A stretch of DNA of 32,000 nt from Polynucleobacter sp. MWH-UH19D (GCF_040409795.1 NZ_CP099571.1:1713439-1745438), one strand, 5' to 3'. Numbered from the stretch's first letter, positions 14,230 through 20,494 are shown. The notes: generated by a model from the letters alone, not told the origin. Numbers and translations are program-made.

Positions 14230-14329
14230 TGTCGTTTAAAACGACACTCTGTTACACACCCACCTAAATCTGTTCTAGACCCTTATATTCAATGGAGGAT
14301 TCATTAGTGCGATCTATTACCAGTCCGAG
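14230..14329 (+). repeat. Composite ~100-bp element A (17-mer P5 at 14230-14246, centre A; TACACACCC; variable middle; ATTAGTGCGATCTATTACC block)
   Basis: Aligned by eye with copies B and C; conserved ends and a divergent centre. Confidence 0.85.
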
Positions 14330-14335
14330 AGTCCA

Positions 14336-14362
14336 AAGAAAAACCACCCAAGGGTGGTTTTG
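14336..14362 (-). terminator. Rho-independent terminator of the 14420..15046 transcription unit
   Basis: AAACCACCC-AA-GGGTGGTTT hairpin followed by a T-run on the minus strand. Confidence 0.75.
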
Positions 14363-14419
14363 TCACTACTAAGTGGCTTGAATCGGAATTGACCAGGAGC
14401 AGAGATACCCAATCGAATA

Positions 14420-15046
14420 TCAATGATTATGTCCTTGGTTATTCATCGGCATTTGACCATTACCCATTGGTATCTGCCCATTCATCATCTTTTGATGATT
14501 ACCCATCATTTGCTGATGAAGTGCTGGATCACAATGTTCATAGTCATTGCTTCCACTCATTTGATGAGCACTAGAGCCCTTATAGCCAAGAATACTTGGA
14601 TCAACCATGCCGGCAATCATGGCGATATGGCCAAACACTAGGAATAAAGCTACGCATATAGCATGGATCTTAAGTTTACCCATTTGATCCAAAGCCTTAT
14701 TGACTACACCCATCTCTTGTAGAGCAATCCAAATGAGCGGCAAACCAGCAATTACATAACTGCCCACAGCAATCGGATCAACCACCGTTCTCCATTCTCC
14801 CGCTTTGGTGATTGGTATGACAGCATTGGTCATGATGTAGTAAATGATGCCTACAAAATAAACACCAACAGCAATACCAGCAAAACGATTCAGGTAATAG
14901 ACCGCCCCATCAAACTTGCGAGTAAAGAGTAGGTATAACTCAGTAATAGCCAAAGTCTCAGCCAAGATGACTGGGATAGCCATAAAGATAATTAAATTCC
15001 AAGGCTGGTTAACAGCCAATAACTCCATGTAGTGAGTCATGTTCAT
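14420..15046 (-). CDS. Polytopic membrane protein with a Met/His-rich C-terminal tail (putative metal-handling protein)
   Basis: GGAG SD 8 nt before the ATG at 15046 (the track start at 15082 is GTG). Several TM segments; the tail HQMSGSNDYEHCDPALHQQMMGNHQKMMNGQIPMGNGQMPMNNQGHNH resembles Cu/Ag-binding Met/His motifs. Confidence 0.7.
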   Translation of the reverse strand: MNMTHYMELLAVNQPWNLIIFMAIPVILAETLAITELYLLFTRKFDGAVYYLNRFAGIAVGVYFVGIIYYIMTNAVIPITKAGEWRTVVDPIAVGSYVIAGLPLIWIALQEMGVVNKALDQMGKLKIHAICVALFLVFGHIAMIAGMVDPSILGYKGSSAHQMSGSNDYEHCDPALHQQMMGNHQKMMNGQIPMGNGQMPMNNQGHNH

Positions 15047-15103
15047 ATATTTCTCCAATAGATAGTAGTGGCTTGCTGCCACAAAAATTAGTTAAAACAA
15101 AAA

Positions 15104-15436
15104 TTAACTAAATTGTCTTGGAGGCTTGAAGATATGGGCAGGAAATGCCTCAACGACCAATAGAGAAACTTGAGGGGTATAGTGACTTAAAAGATCAGGT
15201 TGAGTGTATTGATTTGTAGATAGGTTCGCCACAACACCCAAACAGCACTGATGGTGAGTTTGATGATTGCTTGATTGTGACTTTTTAATCTTGGTGTCGG
15301 CATTTGTATGACAGTCATGTTGAACCACATGCTGAACATGAGCATCACTTGAAGACTCATATGACGCAGACATGCTGCCCGCATGAATGAGGCTGGCAAA
15401 AAGACTAAAGCAGAGAGCAATACATAGTTTTCTCAT
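15104..15436 (-). CDS. Small secreted His/Cys-rich protein (putative periplasmic metal-binding protein)
   Basis: Signal peptide MRKLCIALCFSLFASLIHA followed by HVQHVVQHDCH...NHQTHHQCC. Confidence 0.6.
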   Translation of the reverse strand: MRKLCIALCFSLFASLIHAGSMSASYESSSDAHVQHVVQHDCHTNADTKIKKSQSSNHQTHHQCCLGVVANLSTNQYTQPDLLSHYTPQVSLLVVEAFPAHIFKPPRQFS

Positions 15437-15465
15437 ATTTTTATTCTATGCCTATTTAATGGTTT

Positions 15466-15482
15466 TGTCGTTTAAAACGACA
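15466..15482. repeat. 17-bp palindrome copy P6 (centre A)
   Basis: Perfect copy between two same-strand genes: 10 nt from the MFS stop and 29 nt from the next start. Confidence 0.95.
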
Positions 15483-15492
15483 TACTTTTAAA

Positions 15493-16668
15493 CTAAGCTT
15501 TATCGGGTCCATGAACCCAAAACGCCATCAACATAAACGCTACCAGCGCACAGCCACCTGAAAATAGGAAAGCATATAAAGGCGCAATCGCCTCATAAAT
15601 CCAACCAAAAATGAATGAAGCTGGAAAGAGCATCAGTCCGGTGACTAAATTGAACCAACCAAATGCCGTTCCCGCTAGACCCTTAGGCGCCATATCAGCT
15701 ACCAATGCTTTCTCCACCCCTTCCGTTGCGGCCTTAAACAATCCATAGATTCCAAACAGAGCAAATATTTGGAATATGGAAATACTGGGCATGCCCATGG
15801 CGATGTAAAAGAAAGCAAAAGCAATCCACGCAATCAAAATAAATCGTTTGCGTCCAAACTGATCGGATAGCGCCGATAATGGTGCACCAAATACGGTTGT
15901 GATCAACGAAATACCAGCCCATAACAGCGGGATATTCTCTTGGGGCACGCCAGCTTCTTTTGCTCTTAATAGCAAGAACATATCTGATGAGTTAGCTAAG
16001 GCAAAGATACCGGCTACAACAAGGTATCTTTTAAATTGATCAGGCATGCCTTCCAGAGACCAGCTAAACTTACTCGCTTGAGGAGCGGCTTCTTTGTGAG
16101 GCTCTTTAATACACAAGGCAAGGGCAATCGTGATAACCGCCGGCACAACTGCCCACAGAAAAATATCTCTGAGTGGCACCCCCAAAGATAATAATAGAGC
16201 GGCCAACAACGGGCCAATGACAGCTCCAGCATTATCCATAGAGCGATGAAGCCCAAAGGTAATACCTCTCTGATTTTCATTGACGCTCTCCGCTAATAAG
16301 GCGTCTCGAGGCGAACTACGAAGACCTTTGCCCATGCGATCTGTAAAGCGAATTGCCAAAACCCATAACCAAGAACTGGCGATTGCTATTAGTGGCCTAC
16401 CAATGCCCGCAAGTGAATAACCCAGAACAATCCATGGCTTTGCCTTTTTGGTGCGATCTACGATTACGCCTGAAACCAACTTAAAGATGCTCGAAGTGGC
16501 CTCAGCAATCCCTTCAATAATGCCCAGCGCCTTTGGCCCCGCCATTAAGACTGATGCTAGGTACAAAGGCATTAAGGGATAAAGCATCTCGCTGGCCGAG
16601 TCATTGACTAGACTAATGAGCCCGATGAGCCAAACGGTACGAGGAAGAGCGAGAATACTTTTAAACAT
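15493..16668 (-). CDS. MFS transporter
   Basis: 391 aa with ~12 hydrophobic segments and MFS loop motifs (VDRTKKAKPW, DQFGRKR). Confidence 0.85.
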   Translation of the reverse strand: MFKSILALPRTVWLIGLISLVNDSASEMLYPLMPLYLASVLMAGPKALGIIEGIAEATSSIFKLVSGVIVDRTKKAKPWIVLGYSLAGIGRPLIAIASSWLWVLAIRFTDRMGKGLRSSPRDALLAESVNENQRGITFGLHRSMDNAGAVIGPLLAALLLSLGVPLRDIFLWAVVPAVITIALALCIKEPHKEAAPQASKFSWSLEGMPDQFKRYLVVAGIFALANSSDMFLLLRAKEAGVPQENIPLLWAGISLITTVFGAPLSALSDQFGRKRFILIAWIAFAFFYIAMGMPSISIFQIFALFGIYGLFKAATEGVEKALVADMAPKGLAGTAFGWFNLVTGLMLFPASFIFGWIYEAIAPLYAFLFSGGCALVAFMLMAFWVHGPDKA

Positions 16669-19264: not shown

Positions 19265-19273
19265 TGCTATAAT
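19265..19273 (+). promoter_or_regulatory. Extended -10 promoter element (TGcTATAAT) for the riboswitch/exporter transcript
   Basis: TG-n-TATAAT lies ~7 nt upstream of the predicted start of the riboswitch P1 helix. Confidence 0.45.
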
Positions 19274-19279
19274 TGACAC

Positions 19280-19390
19280 GTCACTAGGGAGTAGCCTCTC
19301 TTCTCTACAGAAGATGGCTTACATCAACATACTTGAGCTTCTAGCTTATGGTGTAAGCGGTTTAGATACTTGGCAAGACTTTTGACTACA
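19280..19390 (+). promoter_or_regulatory. yybP-ykoY (manganese) riboswitch aptamer
   Basis: Conserved blocks AGGGAGTAGC (19286-19295), CAACATAC and TTGGCAAGAC (19370-19379). A closing GTCA...TGAC P1 helix is present, and the element sits upstream of a UPF0016 gene. Confidence 0.8.
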
Positions 19391-19432
19391 AACACTTACT
19401 TAGGCTGTGGGTGCGTTGTAGTCATTTGTTTA
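19384..19432 (+). terminator. Riboswitch expression-platform terminator candidate
   Basis: GACTACAA (19384-19391) pairs with TTGTAGTC (19416-19423) and is followed by ATTTGTTT. The 5' arm overlaps the 3' strand of aptamer P1. Confidence 0.45.
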
Positions 19433-19457
19433 TGTCACAGCCTAGAGGACTATCAAA

Positions 19458-20030
19458 ATGGATTCACTCTTAATCTCCACTGGCGTTGTGGCTCTTGCCG
19501 AGATGGGCGATAAAACCCAGTTACTGGCATTTATTCTTGCGGCTCGCTTTAAAAAGCCTGTTCCGATTATTTTGGGTATTCTTGCGGCAACCATCATCAA
19601 CCACGGCTTGGCTGGCGCATTAGGCGCCTGGATTACAGCAATGGTCAACCCTGAAGTATTGCGCTGGATATTAGGCGCCTCATTTATTGGTATGGCTATT
19701 TGGACTTTGATCCCAGACAAGATTGAAGAAGAGGAAACGCAGGTTGCTAAACACTTGGGCGTATTTGGAGCAACCTTTATCACTTTCTTTTTAGCAGAGA
19801 TGGGTGACAAGACTCAATTGGCTACTATCGCCTTGGCCGCTCACTATGTCGCTCCTTTAGCCGTTGTTGTAGGAACGACTTTAGGAATGCTCATTGCGGA
19901 TGTACCAGCAGTATTTGTAGGCAATAAGTTCGCCAAGAAGATTCCGATGAAGCTGGTTCACTCTATTGCGGCCGGCATCTTCGCAGTAATGGGCGTACTC
20001 ACATTACTTGAAGTTGATAAATTATTTTAA
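19458..20030 (+). CDS. UPF0016 / GDT1 (TMEM165) family cation (Mn2+/Ca2+) transporter
   Basis: Two E-x-G-D-K-T-Q motifs (AEMGDKTQL twice) in a 190-aa six-TM protein. Confidence 0.9.
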   Translation: MDSLLISTGVVALAEMGDKTQLLAFILAARFKKPVPIILGILAATIINHGLAGALGAWITAMVNPEVLRWILGASFIGMAIWTLIPDKIEEEETQVAKHLGVFGATFITFFLAEMGDKTQLATIALAAHYVAPLAVVVGTTLGMLIADVPAVFVGNKFAKKIPMKLVHSIAAGIFAVMGVLTLLEVDKLF

Positions 20031-20039
20031 GGAGGCGTT

Positions 20040-20390
20040 ATGACTTGGATTATCACCAAATACTTACTGACAGCCGGAATGGTTGTATTCATTAGTGAAG
20101 TTGCCAAGCGAAGCGATAAGTTAGGTGGATTCATTGCGGCATTGCCCTTGATGACATTACTTACTCTTACTTGGCTATTCATTGAGAATCAATCGGAAGA
20201 GAAAATAGCAAACCACGCTTATTACACTTTTTGGTATGTGATCCCGACACTACCGATGTTTTTACTATTTCCCTATTTGCTACCAAGACTAGGTTTTTGG
20301 CTCACTATGGGAGCAAGTGTTGTGGTGACAGTTATTTGTTTCGGGCTCTTTGCCTTATTGATGAAAAACTTTGGGGTTGAACTGTTGTGA
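20040..20390 (+). CDS. Small membrane protein (DUF3147-like)
   Basis: 116 aa with four hydrophobic segments, 9 nt after the UPF0016 gene. Confidence 0.6.
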   Translation: MTWIITKYLLTAGMVVFISEVAKRSDKLGGFIAALPLMTLLTLTWLFIENQSEEKIANHAYYTFWYVIPTLPMFLLFPYLLPRLGFWLTMGASVVVTVICFGLFALLMKNFGVELL

Positions 20391-20395
20391 TGATT

Positions 20396-20494
20396 TGTCG
20401 TTTTAAACGACAATTCAATACACACCCACTAGATCACACTCTAGCTTCTTGATTTGCTTGGTGAAATAATTAGTGCGATCTATTACTACTCCGA
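20396..20494 (+). repeat. Composite ~100-bp element C (17-mer P9 at 20396-20412, centre T)
   Basis: Shares the 17-mer, ATACACACCC and ATTAGTGCGATCTATTAC blocks with A and B. The middle differs but keeps a short hairpin (CTAGA-N6-TCTAG). Confidence 0.8.

Follow-up and report, generated by a model that had tools for sequence, protein, structure and literature searches.

The locus studied here raises a simple question: what are three co-oriented repeats of ~100 bp, with conserved ends and a variable centre, doing between the genes of a freshwater Polynucleobacter? In the 32,000-nucleotide stretch of Polynucleobacter sp. MWH-UH19D that we analysed (the window; GCF_040409795.1 NZ_CP099571.1:1713439-1745438), a sequence-only reading had placed the repeats at 14230-14329, 18288-18386 and 20396-20494 and had suggested an att- or attC-like recombination site, a small RNA gene or a MITE. 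The repeats lie where that reading put them, with ends at 14229/30-14328/9 (element A), 18287/8-18386 (B) and 20395/6-20494 (C), and they are genuine non-coding junction pieces that separate the cargo gene cassettes of a mobile island. We found no published description of the element. Each copy is built from a perfect 17-bp palindrome, TGTCGTTTWAAACGACA (PAL), followed by an 83-nt tail (t1):

14230-14246, unstranded: PAL copy P4, 5' module of element A
14247-14329, plus strand: t1 tail of A, with TACACACC at 14253-14260, a variable centre and the 3' block ATTAGTGCGATCTATTACCAGTCCGAG
14341-14410, unstranded: downstream of A, the hairpin terminator AAACCACCCAAGGGTGGTTT and then a degenerate fragment resembling a tRNA-Phe 3' end
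18288-18304, unstranded: PAL copy P7, 5' module of element B
18305-18386, plus strand: t1 tail of B
20396-20412, unstranded: PAL copy P8, 5' module of element C
20413-20494, plus strand: t1 tail of C

Over 100 nt, B is 87% and C 70% identical to A, and the repeat keeps a length of 99-101 nt across species. A profile search of the kind proposed in the sequence-only reading (nhmmer, 20 copies) recovered exactly three elements in the 1.95-Mb genome (E 5e-27 to 7e-24); a profile of the tail only returned the same three copies from the whole genome. PAL never varies among aligned copies and the 27-nt 3' block of t1 is 86% conserved, and both truncated and palindrome-less copies exist. As had been described, a plus-strand gene ends shortly before each PAL (stop codons 7, 12 and 5 nt upstream in A, B and C; the gene before B is a 57-aa ORF at 18102-18275) and a minus-strand gene ends after each 3' block (90, 12 and 22 nt past it), with t1 occupying the entire gap between the convergent genes in B and C. 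This convergent setting holds in the window, but it is not the rule across 20 copies, where the left-hand gene is on the plus strand in 12 and on the minus strand in 8.

PAL extends well beyond the three elements. At up to two mismatches the window holds 19 matches with both strands counted, equal to 10 sites, against none in shuffles of the window, and GTCGTTTWAAACGAC has nine copies in the genome, all between positions 31 and 22399 of the window. All PAL copies of the genome are internal to the island, where they bracket gene modules and both att arms. Besides those of the three elements, the sites are:

31-47, unstranded: P1, ~160 nt inside the attL arm from the tRNA anticodon-loop crossover, with TACACACC at 9-16
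5807-5823 and 6031-6047, unstranded: P2 and P3, flanking a 207-bp spacer
12225-12241, unstranded: PAL-like word with two mismatches in the 5' coding part of the ORF at 12178-12951, read as VVLND
15466-15482, unstranded: P5, tail-less, at the junction of the DUF2946/DUF6803 cassette and the MFS cassette
16692-16708, unstranded: P6, with no recognisable t1 tail, at the junction of the MFS cassette and the Sel1/HTH cassette
22383-22399, unstranded: P9, one mismatch, ~165 nt inside the attR arm

In three different backbone genes the PAL word falls in frame and encodes (V/D)VLND with identical codon choice, which points to selection at the DNA level; the VVLND position in the ORF at 12178-12951 is conserved through its protein family. 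Of 201 genomes sampled within the genus, 119 (~59%) carry PAL, grouped in arrays. A reversed control pattern gave no match, and no PAL was found in 355 genomes drawn from 28 further genera of the family. A phage or satellite identity was rejected, as IMG/VR yielded seven contigs with a single PAL each and no arrays, about what chance would give for the estimated size of that collection.

The island that carries these sites spans 22 kb. It has inserted into the anticodon loop of a tRNA(CAU) gene and is flanked by a direct repeat of 60 nt:

Genome 1713311-1713370: left copy of this repeat, within the intact tRNA gene that immediately precedes the window
7105-8397, plus strand: tyrosine integrase; AF2 model with N-terminal beta-sheet-plus-helix, core-binding and catalytic domains
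10161-10757, plus strand: Xer-like tyrosine recombinase (mini recombinase) of 198 aa, catalytic domain only, with an in-frame PAL-like word at 10343-10359 read as DVLND
22566-22625, minus strand: right copy of the direct repeat, spanning the tRNA(CAU) 5' half as far as the anticodon loop and ~21 nt that precede the gene

With its tyrosine recombinase, its tRNA(CAU) target and 60-nt repeat, and partial tRNAs inside, this is a tRNA-targeting integrative island of tycheposon-like type. Tycheposons are tyrosine-recombinase islands of streamlined plankton, found at tRNA genes including tRNA-Met(cat), in which successive integrations push older elements deeper into the island, partial tRNAs are scattered throughout and the cargo consists of small plug-in modules (Hackl et al., bioRxiv 10.1101/2020.12.28.424599). 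The likeness extends to our arrays, which contain tRNA-Phe and tRNA-Met fragments. However, an invariant 17-bp palindrome here bounds every module and att arm and is followed by a lineage-specific oriented tail, whereas the term 'palindrom' is absent from the tycheposon paper (10.1101/2020.12.28.424599), and integration here takes place in an anticodon loop or a group I intron, not at a tRNA 3' end.

The integrase is predicted to carry a lambda-like N-terminal domain of the arm-binding type, as expected of a lambda-type att system: in the AF2 model (pLDDT 84) residues 42-101 form four strands plus a helix, and Foldseek aligns ~400 columns with full-length lambda Int against ~325 with lambda Int 75-356. 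A short motif could play the matching part in the DNA. TACACACC, which had been noted beside the first PAL and in inverted form at 22483-22490, is present at both places and is common to t1, both att arms and the region upstream of the integrase (7086-7093, 11 nt before the start codon). It is only 8 nt long, with six occurrences in the 22-kb island against 23 in the remaining 1.93 Mb, nine in 132 kb of related islands against 1.6 expected, and none in 276 kb of other arrays. In contrast to a lambda attP, t1 as a whole is not significantly similar to the att arms of its own island, and it is found inside the island and not just at its ends.

The t1 tail is a minority variant, present in 10 of 241 genomes. 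These include all five genomes that carry the island's integrase at >=90% identity, with two to three copies each, an association whose independence is overstated because the five may be close kin. Some t1 genomes, such as G088, have neither a close integrase nor the mini recombinase. In mapped W-type islands and contig L106, full t1 copies have a single orientation along the island axis and lie between the backbone and attR, and t1 is confined to the cargo arm of mapped islands. The gene to the right of t1 reads on the minus strand in 17 of 19 copies, and in most copies its stop codon is 2-125 nt from the t1 3' end, an arrangement repeated in three short metagenome contigs (L103-L105).

The cassettes on either side of these junctions are reshuffled among relatives, each as a whole unit. 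The window has the order (t1-DUF6803-DUF2946)-PAL-(MFS)-PAL and G050 the order (MFS)-PAL-...-PAL.t1-(DUF6803), and in G088 the Sel1/HTH cassette is followed by other cassettes. A gene of 116 aa is followed by PAL and t1 in two genomes, by PAL and another tail in a third, and elsewhere by other TGTCG...CGACA palindromes. PAL is joined to several unrelated tails, one of which, t2, has no significant overall similarity to t1. In L021 the order is PAL, t2, terminator and intact tRNA-Phe; in the window and three other copies it is PAL, t1, terminator and a tRNA-Phe 3' fragment, and in other genomes, too, the AAACCACCCAAGGGTGGTTT terminator/tRNA-Phe-fragment module lies 3' of the first t1 that comes after the backbone. 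Of 152 PALs, 28 have a piece of the tRNA-Phe 3' end close by. In a small island without an integrase, a t1-like variant directly adjoins the direct repeat, which consists of the 3' part of a group I intron and the 3' half of tRNA-Met.

Of the three options raised initially, an att-like site fits best, because the element is found where cassettes meet in an island integrated in a tRNA gene, keeps one orientation along the axis of that island, occupies the position of tails that link PAL to att cores (tRNA-Phe; the group-I-intron/tRNA-Met repeat) and tracks the island's own integrase lineage. We therefore favour, tentatively and at a little short of an even chance, an att-type cassette-junction site with PAL as core and t1 as accessory arm. 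Homology between islands starts and stops at PAL or at t1 edges, and PAL is therefore the likely crossover or core-type site. Since no recombination event was observed, we infer recombination at PAL, the enzyme (integrase or mini recombinase) and protein binding by the tail; our searches found neither an excision product nor an empty site, and no recently gained or lost unit between near-identical flanks. Several points count against this assignment: 17 bp is short for the core of a tyrosine recombinase, PAL is symmetric, some junctions (P5, P6) are PAL without any tail, and ordinary homologous recombination between repeats could yield the same mosaics. Identity along flank-sharing pairs revealed no single crossover point within t1, and the central A/T of PAL does not correlate with t1 orientation.

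One alternative, which we regard as unlikely, is that t1 insulates transcription. Its unstructured, C-rich and G-poor plus-strand tail would act like a Rho-loading site, with a PAL-bound protein as roadblock, and would stop transcripts of the backbone or a neighbour from running antisense into the minus-strand cargo operon. The composition of the tail (~14 C and 4.7 G on average in its first 45 nt, 20 copies) and its lack of structure (mean z -0.5) are consistent with this, as are an orientation fixed relative to the backbone and the spanning of the whole convergent gap in B and C, where no intrinsic terminator is predicted. However, the 8 copies mentioned above have a minus-strand gene to their left, and therefore no plus-strand transcript is expected to reach them. 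In addition, conservation of the 27-nt 3' block goes far beyond the needs of a Rho-loading site, element A is already trailed by a strong hairpin terminator of its own, and an insulator leaves the link to one integrase lineage unexplained.

PAL and its alternative tails could also form a non-autonomous, BIME/REP-like family that spreads or homogenises within islands without serving them, with cassette shuffling as a by-product of homologous recombination between copies. Copies from the same genome or lineage are more alike (W_A-W_B 0.83, L061-W_A 0.86) than those that share flanks (mean 0.67), which suggests homogenisation or recent copying, and a selfish family would account for the several unrelated tails, the defective copies and t1 breakpoints that are not unique. 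We nonetheless consider such a family distinctly improbable, given its strict co-orientation along the island axis, its fixed length across species and the retention of PAL inside three coding genes. REP/BIME families have hundreds of intergenic copies genome-wide and an associated Y1 transposase. Here all copies are in one 22-kb island and the only Y1_Tnp gene, at 84.5 kb, is 1.6 Mb away with no PAL beside it, and a REP/BIME system with a RAYT was rejected. The MITE of the sequence-only reading is likewise unsupported, as the ends TGTCGTTT (5') and CTCCGAG (3') are not inverted repeats, no flank duplication occurs in 20 copies and the element is island-confined.

It is very unlikely that t1 acts on mRNA stability or regulation as an RNA, whether within the 3' UTR of the right-hand cargo gene, read from the minus strand with the PAL hairpin at its end, or in the form of a small RNA. 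Its place just past the right-hand stop codon would suit a 3' UTR, PAL can fold into a 7-bp hairpin (-6.2 kcal/mol), and five positions of a central 5-6-bp stem are paired in 65-90% of copies, G-U pairs being frequent on the plus strand. Yet neither covariation nor pairing rises above controls, since 30 of 500 shuffles reach the observed covariation and 55 of 500 the observed paired fraction; RNAalifold predicts the invariant palindrome only, and on neither strand do the tails fold better than their shuffles (mean z -0.5 and 0.0). The central hairpins described earlier do exist in B and C, but at differing positions; A has none, and P<=0.05 against shuffles was reached in 1 of 20 copies only. 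Rfam 15 gave no t1 match at the gathering score or at E<=1, and neither a promoter nor an intrinsic terminator (G+C-rich hairpin plus T run) is predicted in any of A, B and C; only the PALs that lack a tail, at 15466 and 16692, pass the terminator scan. A small RNA gene is thus unsupported.

The proposed att-type junction site can be compared with known modular systems. In integrons, the inverse-core and core boxes at the two ends of attC pair into a folded single-strand hairpin. As in attC, a variable centre stands between conserved ends in the ~100-nt element, which is placed 3' of cassette genes in co-oriented arrays whose order differs among relatives. An integron attC is rejected, however: the ends of t1 are not complementary, as the sequence-only reading had recognised, and its folding is at shuffle level. 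Nor is there an IntI, the mini recombinase scoring 36.9 bits (cut-off 265) and 21.4 bits (cut-off 435) with the NCBIfam integron-integrase models and the large integrase giving no match; the cassettes, unlike those of integrons, often hold several genes on both strands. The pdif modules of Acinetobacter plasmids are small gene modules between short recombinase-type sites, reshuffled between replicons, and the Xer-like recombinase of the island backbone recalls them. Yet a pdif site is a XerC/XerD site of 28 bp whose two arms differ, whereas PAL is a perfect palindrome of 17 bp and contains nothing dif-like; the core-binding domain is missing from the Xer-like protein of the island, and PAL arrays also occur in genomes without it. 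In the CIMEs of Streptococcus thermophilus ICESt1/3, recombinase-less cargo stands in tandem with an integrase-bearing element, with att-type sites between them. A counterpart here is the integrase-less unit with a t1-like arm between two att repeats. In CIMEs, however, the repeated site is the att core itself, whereas most junctions here keep only PAL and a tail, the tRNA-derived core being missing in B and C.

Altogether, each element would be a junction site of a modular integrative island, composed of two parts and working as double-stranded DNA. PAL would be the universal module boundary of this island family, and t1, with its TACACACC and conserved 27-nt block, an oriented accessory arm specific to the island lineage that has this integrase. 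The tail may bind the lambda-like N-terminal domain of the integrase, a partner protein or both, and so fix directionality. Cargo units of PAL, t1 and genes would be added to the island one after another and exchanged or shuffled through recombination at PAL/t1 junctions, sites that may serve cassette swapping in Polynucleobacter now or may have done so recently.

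Elements A (14230-14329), B (18288-18386) and C (20396-20494) each begin with TGTCGTTTWAAACGACA, a perfect 17-bp palindrome (PAL), followed by an 83-nt tail, t1. Our preferred reading, which we put forward tentatively, is that they are a double-stranded att-type junction site in which PAL would be the core or crossover module and t1 an oriented accessory arm specific to the lineage. The three elements lie where a reading of the sequence alone had placed them; their alignment is gap-free except for single bases, and B and C are 87% and 70% identical to A, respectively, over 100 nt. 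Within the window, PAL sites with up to two mismatches number ten, and shuffled sequences contain none. The window covers positions 1713439-1745438 of its genome, which the public names of homologous proteins place in Polynucleobacter. The genome is a single contig of 1.95 Mb (44.7% G+C), in which the 15-nt core of PAL has nine copies, all inside 31-22399 of the window, and the 3' block of the tail, TTAGTGCGATCTATTAC, occurs three times only. As had been proposed, the genome was searched with a profile, here of 20 copies, and exactly three full elements were returned; a profile of the tail alone found the same three. Our own guess that the 64 nt following the tail-less PAL P6 (16692..16708) are a decayed t1 was not confirmed by profile search.

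Positions 1-22625 of the window form an integrative island. Immediately left of the window is an intact tRNA(CAU) gene, and a 60-nt exact repeat, at 22566-22625 and at genome positions 1713311-1713370, comprises the 5' half of tRNA(CAU) and ~21 nt upstream of the gene. Since the 5' half is repeated at the far end, integration occurred in the anticodon loop. The promoter-proximal 5' half is the one supplied by the island, and the displaced original is the repeat at the far end. PAL copies P1 and P9 lie ~160 nt inside their respective att arms, which are conserved in six genomes. The island contains:

defence operon
7105..8397, plus strand, tyrosine integrase, 430 aa
DUF6641
Polynucleobacter-1 RNA
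10161..10757, plus strand, Xer-like recombinase (mini recombinase), 198 aa, catalytic domain only
two unknown ORFs
clamp-loader-like AAA ATPase
cargo arm: DUF6803/DUF2946; MFS transporter; Sel1/HTH genes
cargo arm: CDF exporter; Mn riboswitch with UPF0016; patatin-plus-nucleotidyltransferase pair

Its operons include metal export, CBASS-type phage defence and transporters. The terminal cassette (20517-22356), between element C and PAL P9, is a CBASS-like pair of genes for a patatin-like phospholipase and a nucleotidyltransferase, of which no homologue was found in the other arrays compared; for the CDF protein (18399-19220), there was no identical record elsewhere. Elsewhere in the genome, a second tRNA-Met(CAU) gene (~1571247-1571600) has, ~250 bp beyond it, a duplicate of its own 5' half up to the anticodon loop; this resembles the scar left by a largely deleted element with the same type of integration. 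ARAGORN also called a 'permuted tmRNA' with an odd tag at 511573-512114, a probably spurious prediction that overlaps the ordinary tmRNA gene (512019-512377).

Beyond this genome, further t1 copies turned up on four metagenome contigs, a search that the sequence-only reading had also suggested. With the tail alone as the BLAST query, t1 was found in 10/241 genomes, and 20 distinct full copies were recovered, from 10 genomes. In every one of the 20, the distance from the start of PAL to the start of the 3' block is 72-74 nt, and mean identity is 67% over the whole tail and 86% over the 3' block. Maps of related islands share one architecture: attL arm, PAL, defence genes, integrase, backbone and repeated PAL-t1-cargo units, with PAL, attR arm and tRNA half after the last unit at the far end. 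All full t1 copies in the mapped islands and in the contig L106 point in the same direction along the island axis. The distances to stop codons first reported for A, B and C are correct, the gene upstream of B being a 57-aa ORF. The accompanying claim that the elements always lie between convergent genes holds in the window but not in general: across the 20 copies the left-hand gene is on either strand, whereas the right-hand gene is on the minus strand in 17/19, in most cases ending 2-125 nt from t1, and the convergent arrangement is therefore local to the window. In general, t1 is found immediately 3' of the right-hand cargo genes.

The cargo between these sites behaves as discrete units. 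In the genome G050, the MFS and DUF6803 cassettes are in reverse order relative to the window, each retaining its own PAL or PAL-t1. A Sel1/HTH cassette is common to the window and G088 (83% identity) and is followed by different cassettes in G088, and the slot adjacent to attR holds a cassette that varies among genomes, always with PAL-t1 at its start. After the gene for a 116-aa protein (20040-20390) comes PAL-t1 in two genomes, PAL with another tail in a third, and, on metagenome contigs encoding the identical protein, other palindromes with the same TGTCG...CGACA arms. Stretches of homology between islands break off at PAL's outer edge or where t1 ends on its 3' side. Because all t1 copies are alike, these sharp edges alone do not place the crossover, and identities of sub-segments in pairs sharing a flank gave no single crossover point. 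As an att-type junction, the site would mark successive cargo units and may permit their exchange; the comparisons revealed no recombination event. The integrase gene is, in other genomes, itself bracketed by palindromes, ~76 nt upstream of its start and 5 nt past its stop (L034:3754-5031, L035:12842-14195 and L106:3127-4480), as if it were arranged as a cassette.

The tails also occupy the interval between PAL and an att core. In the locus L021, the order is PAL, t2 (another tail type), terminator and intact tRNA-Phe; in the window and three other copies, it is PAL, t1, terminator and a tRNA-Phe 3' fragment. A conserved t1-like variant, in four genomes, adjoins the direct repeat of a small integrase-less island, a repeat made up of a group I intron's 3' part and the 3' half of tRNA-Met. 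This small island (AAA ATPase and esterase) is inserted within the 3' part of the intron in four genomes, and its flanks are repeats of the intron 3' part, 3' exon and terminator. In G217 (L075:2722-2943; flanks 2640-3000), a group I intron (Rfam RF00028, 56.8 bits) lies in the anticodon loop of tRNA-Met(CAU).

Two recombinases could act on such sites. Integrase homologues of at least 90% identity occur in only five genomes, all of which (5/5) carry t1, in 2-3 copies each; five further genomes have t1 without a close integrase. The motif TACACACC is present in both att arms, in t1 and a short distance ahead of the integrase gene; islands of this type are enriched for it, and the other arrays compared lack it. 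In its structural model the integrase has a lambda-like N-terminal sheet-plus-helix domain, and a sequence search against PDB chains returned no match. The mini recombinase family is present in 115/241 genomes and missing from some that bear arrays. As a candidate PAL-binding protein, the ORF at 12178-12951 was rejected (AF2 pLDDT 70; no PDB fold match, best E 0.21); it also had no Pfam, PHROG or NCBIfam match.

PAL itself was found in 119 of 201 sampled Polynucleobacter genomes (a reversed control pattern gave zero matches), nearly always arrayed at a spacing of 0.5-9 kb and joined to several unrelated tails. It was absent from 355 genomes of 28 other genera of the same family, occurred in viral contigs at about chance frequency (collection size estimated), and was not found in the literature searched. 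Three backbone genes unrelated to one another (mini recombinase, ORF 12178, AAA ATPase) also contain the PAL word within their reading frame, where it is translated as (V/D)VLND from identical codons, including the rare TTA for leucine (window 10343-10359 and 12225-12241; L035:19847, L038:10300 and L028:1016). In the AF2 model of ORF 12178-12951 the peptide lies within a predicted disordered segment, which suggests that the DNA word, and not the protein, is under selection, and the in-frame words point to a DNA-level role for PAL beyond cassette junctions. On one metagenome contig with the identical 116-aa protein (L110:4350-4700), four to five distinct palindromes, identical in their outer arms, occupy the intergenic region past the gene, GTGTCGCGAAACGCGACAC and TTGTCGGGTTACCCGACAA among them. 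They suggest that TGTCG...CGACA sites form a wider family whose centres are lineage-specific. Other tails (L021-L040; for example L021:8964, L023:11580 and L032:6747) have second and third related palindromes, GTCGCTTAAATAGAC and GTCCTTTTAAAGGAC, ~25-50 nt apart and then GGGGATATCCGAGACTAATGGCG, and share the heptamer TCCGAGA with the 3' end of t1.

Among the alternatives, it is unlikely that t1 is a transcriptional insulator; the first half of the tail is C-rich, G-poor and unstructured, as this would have it. Neither a promoter nor an intrinsic terminator was predicted in t1. Less probable again is a selfish mosaic repeat. The MITE proposed from the sequence alone was rejected, as was REP/RAYT; in this genome the copies are confined to the island. 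We consider an RNA element improbable. The small RNA gene also proposed at first found no fold support in the tails on either strand: alifold, pair counting, shuffles and z-scores for both strands revealed nothing beyond the invariant palindrome for a structured RNA or single-strand site. An ACACAC-GTGCG long-range pairing noted by eye was dropped because its 3' column is T, C or A opposite an invariant A. No Rfam family matched t1. The complementarity to the large structured RNA region at 9181-10200 that an RNA-guided system would call for was found in neither PAL nor t1. The original suggestion of an att/attC-like site fits best in its att-type form, and not as a classical attC hairpin, the tails not being folded single-strand sites. 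Compared with the island's att arms and with t2, the tail showed no significant similarity (z <= 2.6), and it is neither a copy of those arms nor akin to t2. As a tentative lead, the block TTAGTGCGATCT, with a variable inverted repeat ahead of it, resembles MOBQ-type oriT nick regions (9/12 match); the island backbone yielded neither a relaxase nor an HUH protein.

A bolder proposal, possible but doubtful, is that PAL with its tail is the recombination site of an undescribed cassette-exchange system with an integron-like architecture, working on double-stranded DNA. All modules would have the symmetric 17-bp core in common, and other lineages would use related TGTCG...CGACA cores. Which recombinase a cassette belongs to, a particular lambda-like integrase or the domain-poor Xer-like mini recombinase, would be set by interchangeable accessory arms (t1, t2 and others). 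The nearest parallels already described are tycheposon-type islands, integron cassettes, pdif modules and the accretion of att-flanked elements; we know of none among them with an invariant palindrome and interchangeable tails.

Polynucleobacter are among the most abundant freshwater bacteria, and their strains differ mainly in genomic islands. Were t1 only a scar or an insulator, it would still mark the modular build of these islands, but its interest would be local. If PAL and its tails are working sites, they would account for the plugging in and out of single operons at tRNA-linked islands in a streamlined genome, provide a sequence tag (17-mer and 83-nt arm) for cassette boundaries in metagenomes, and pair a short DNA site with two candidate recombinases in a way that can be tested. 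If cassette exchange is true, streamlined freshwater bacteria that lack plasmids could trade single operons.
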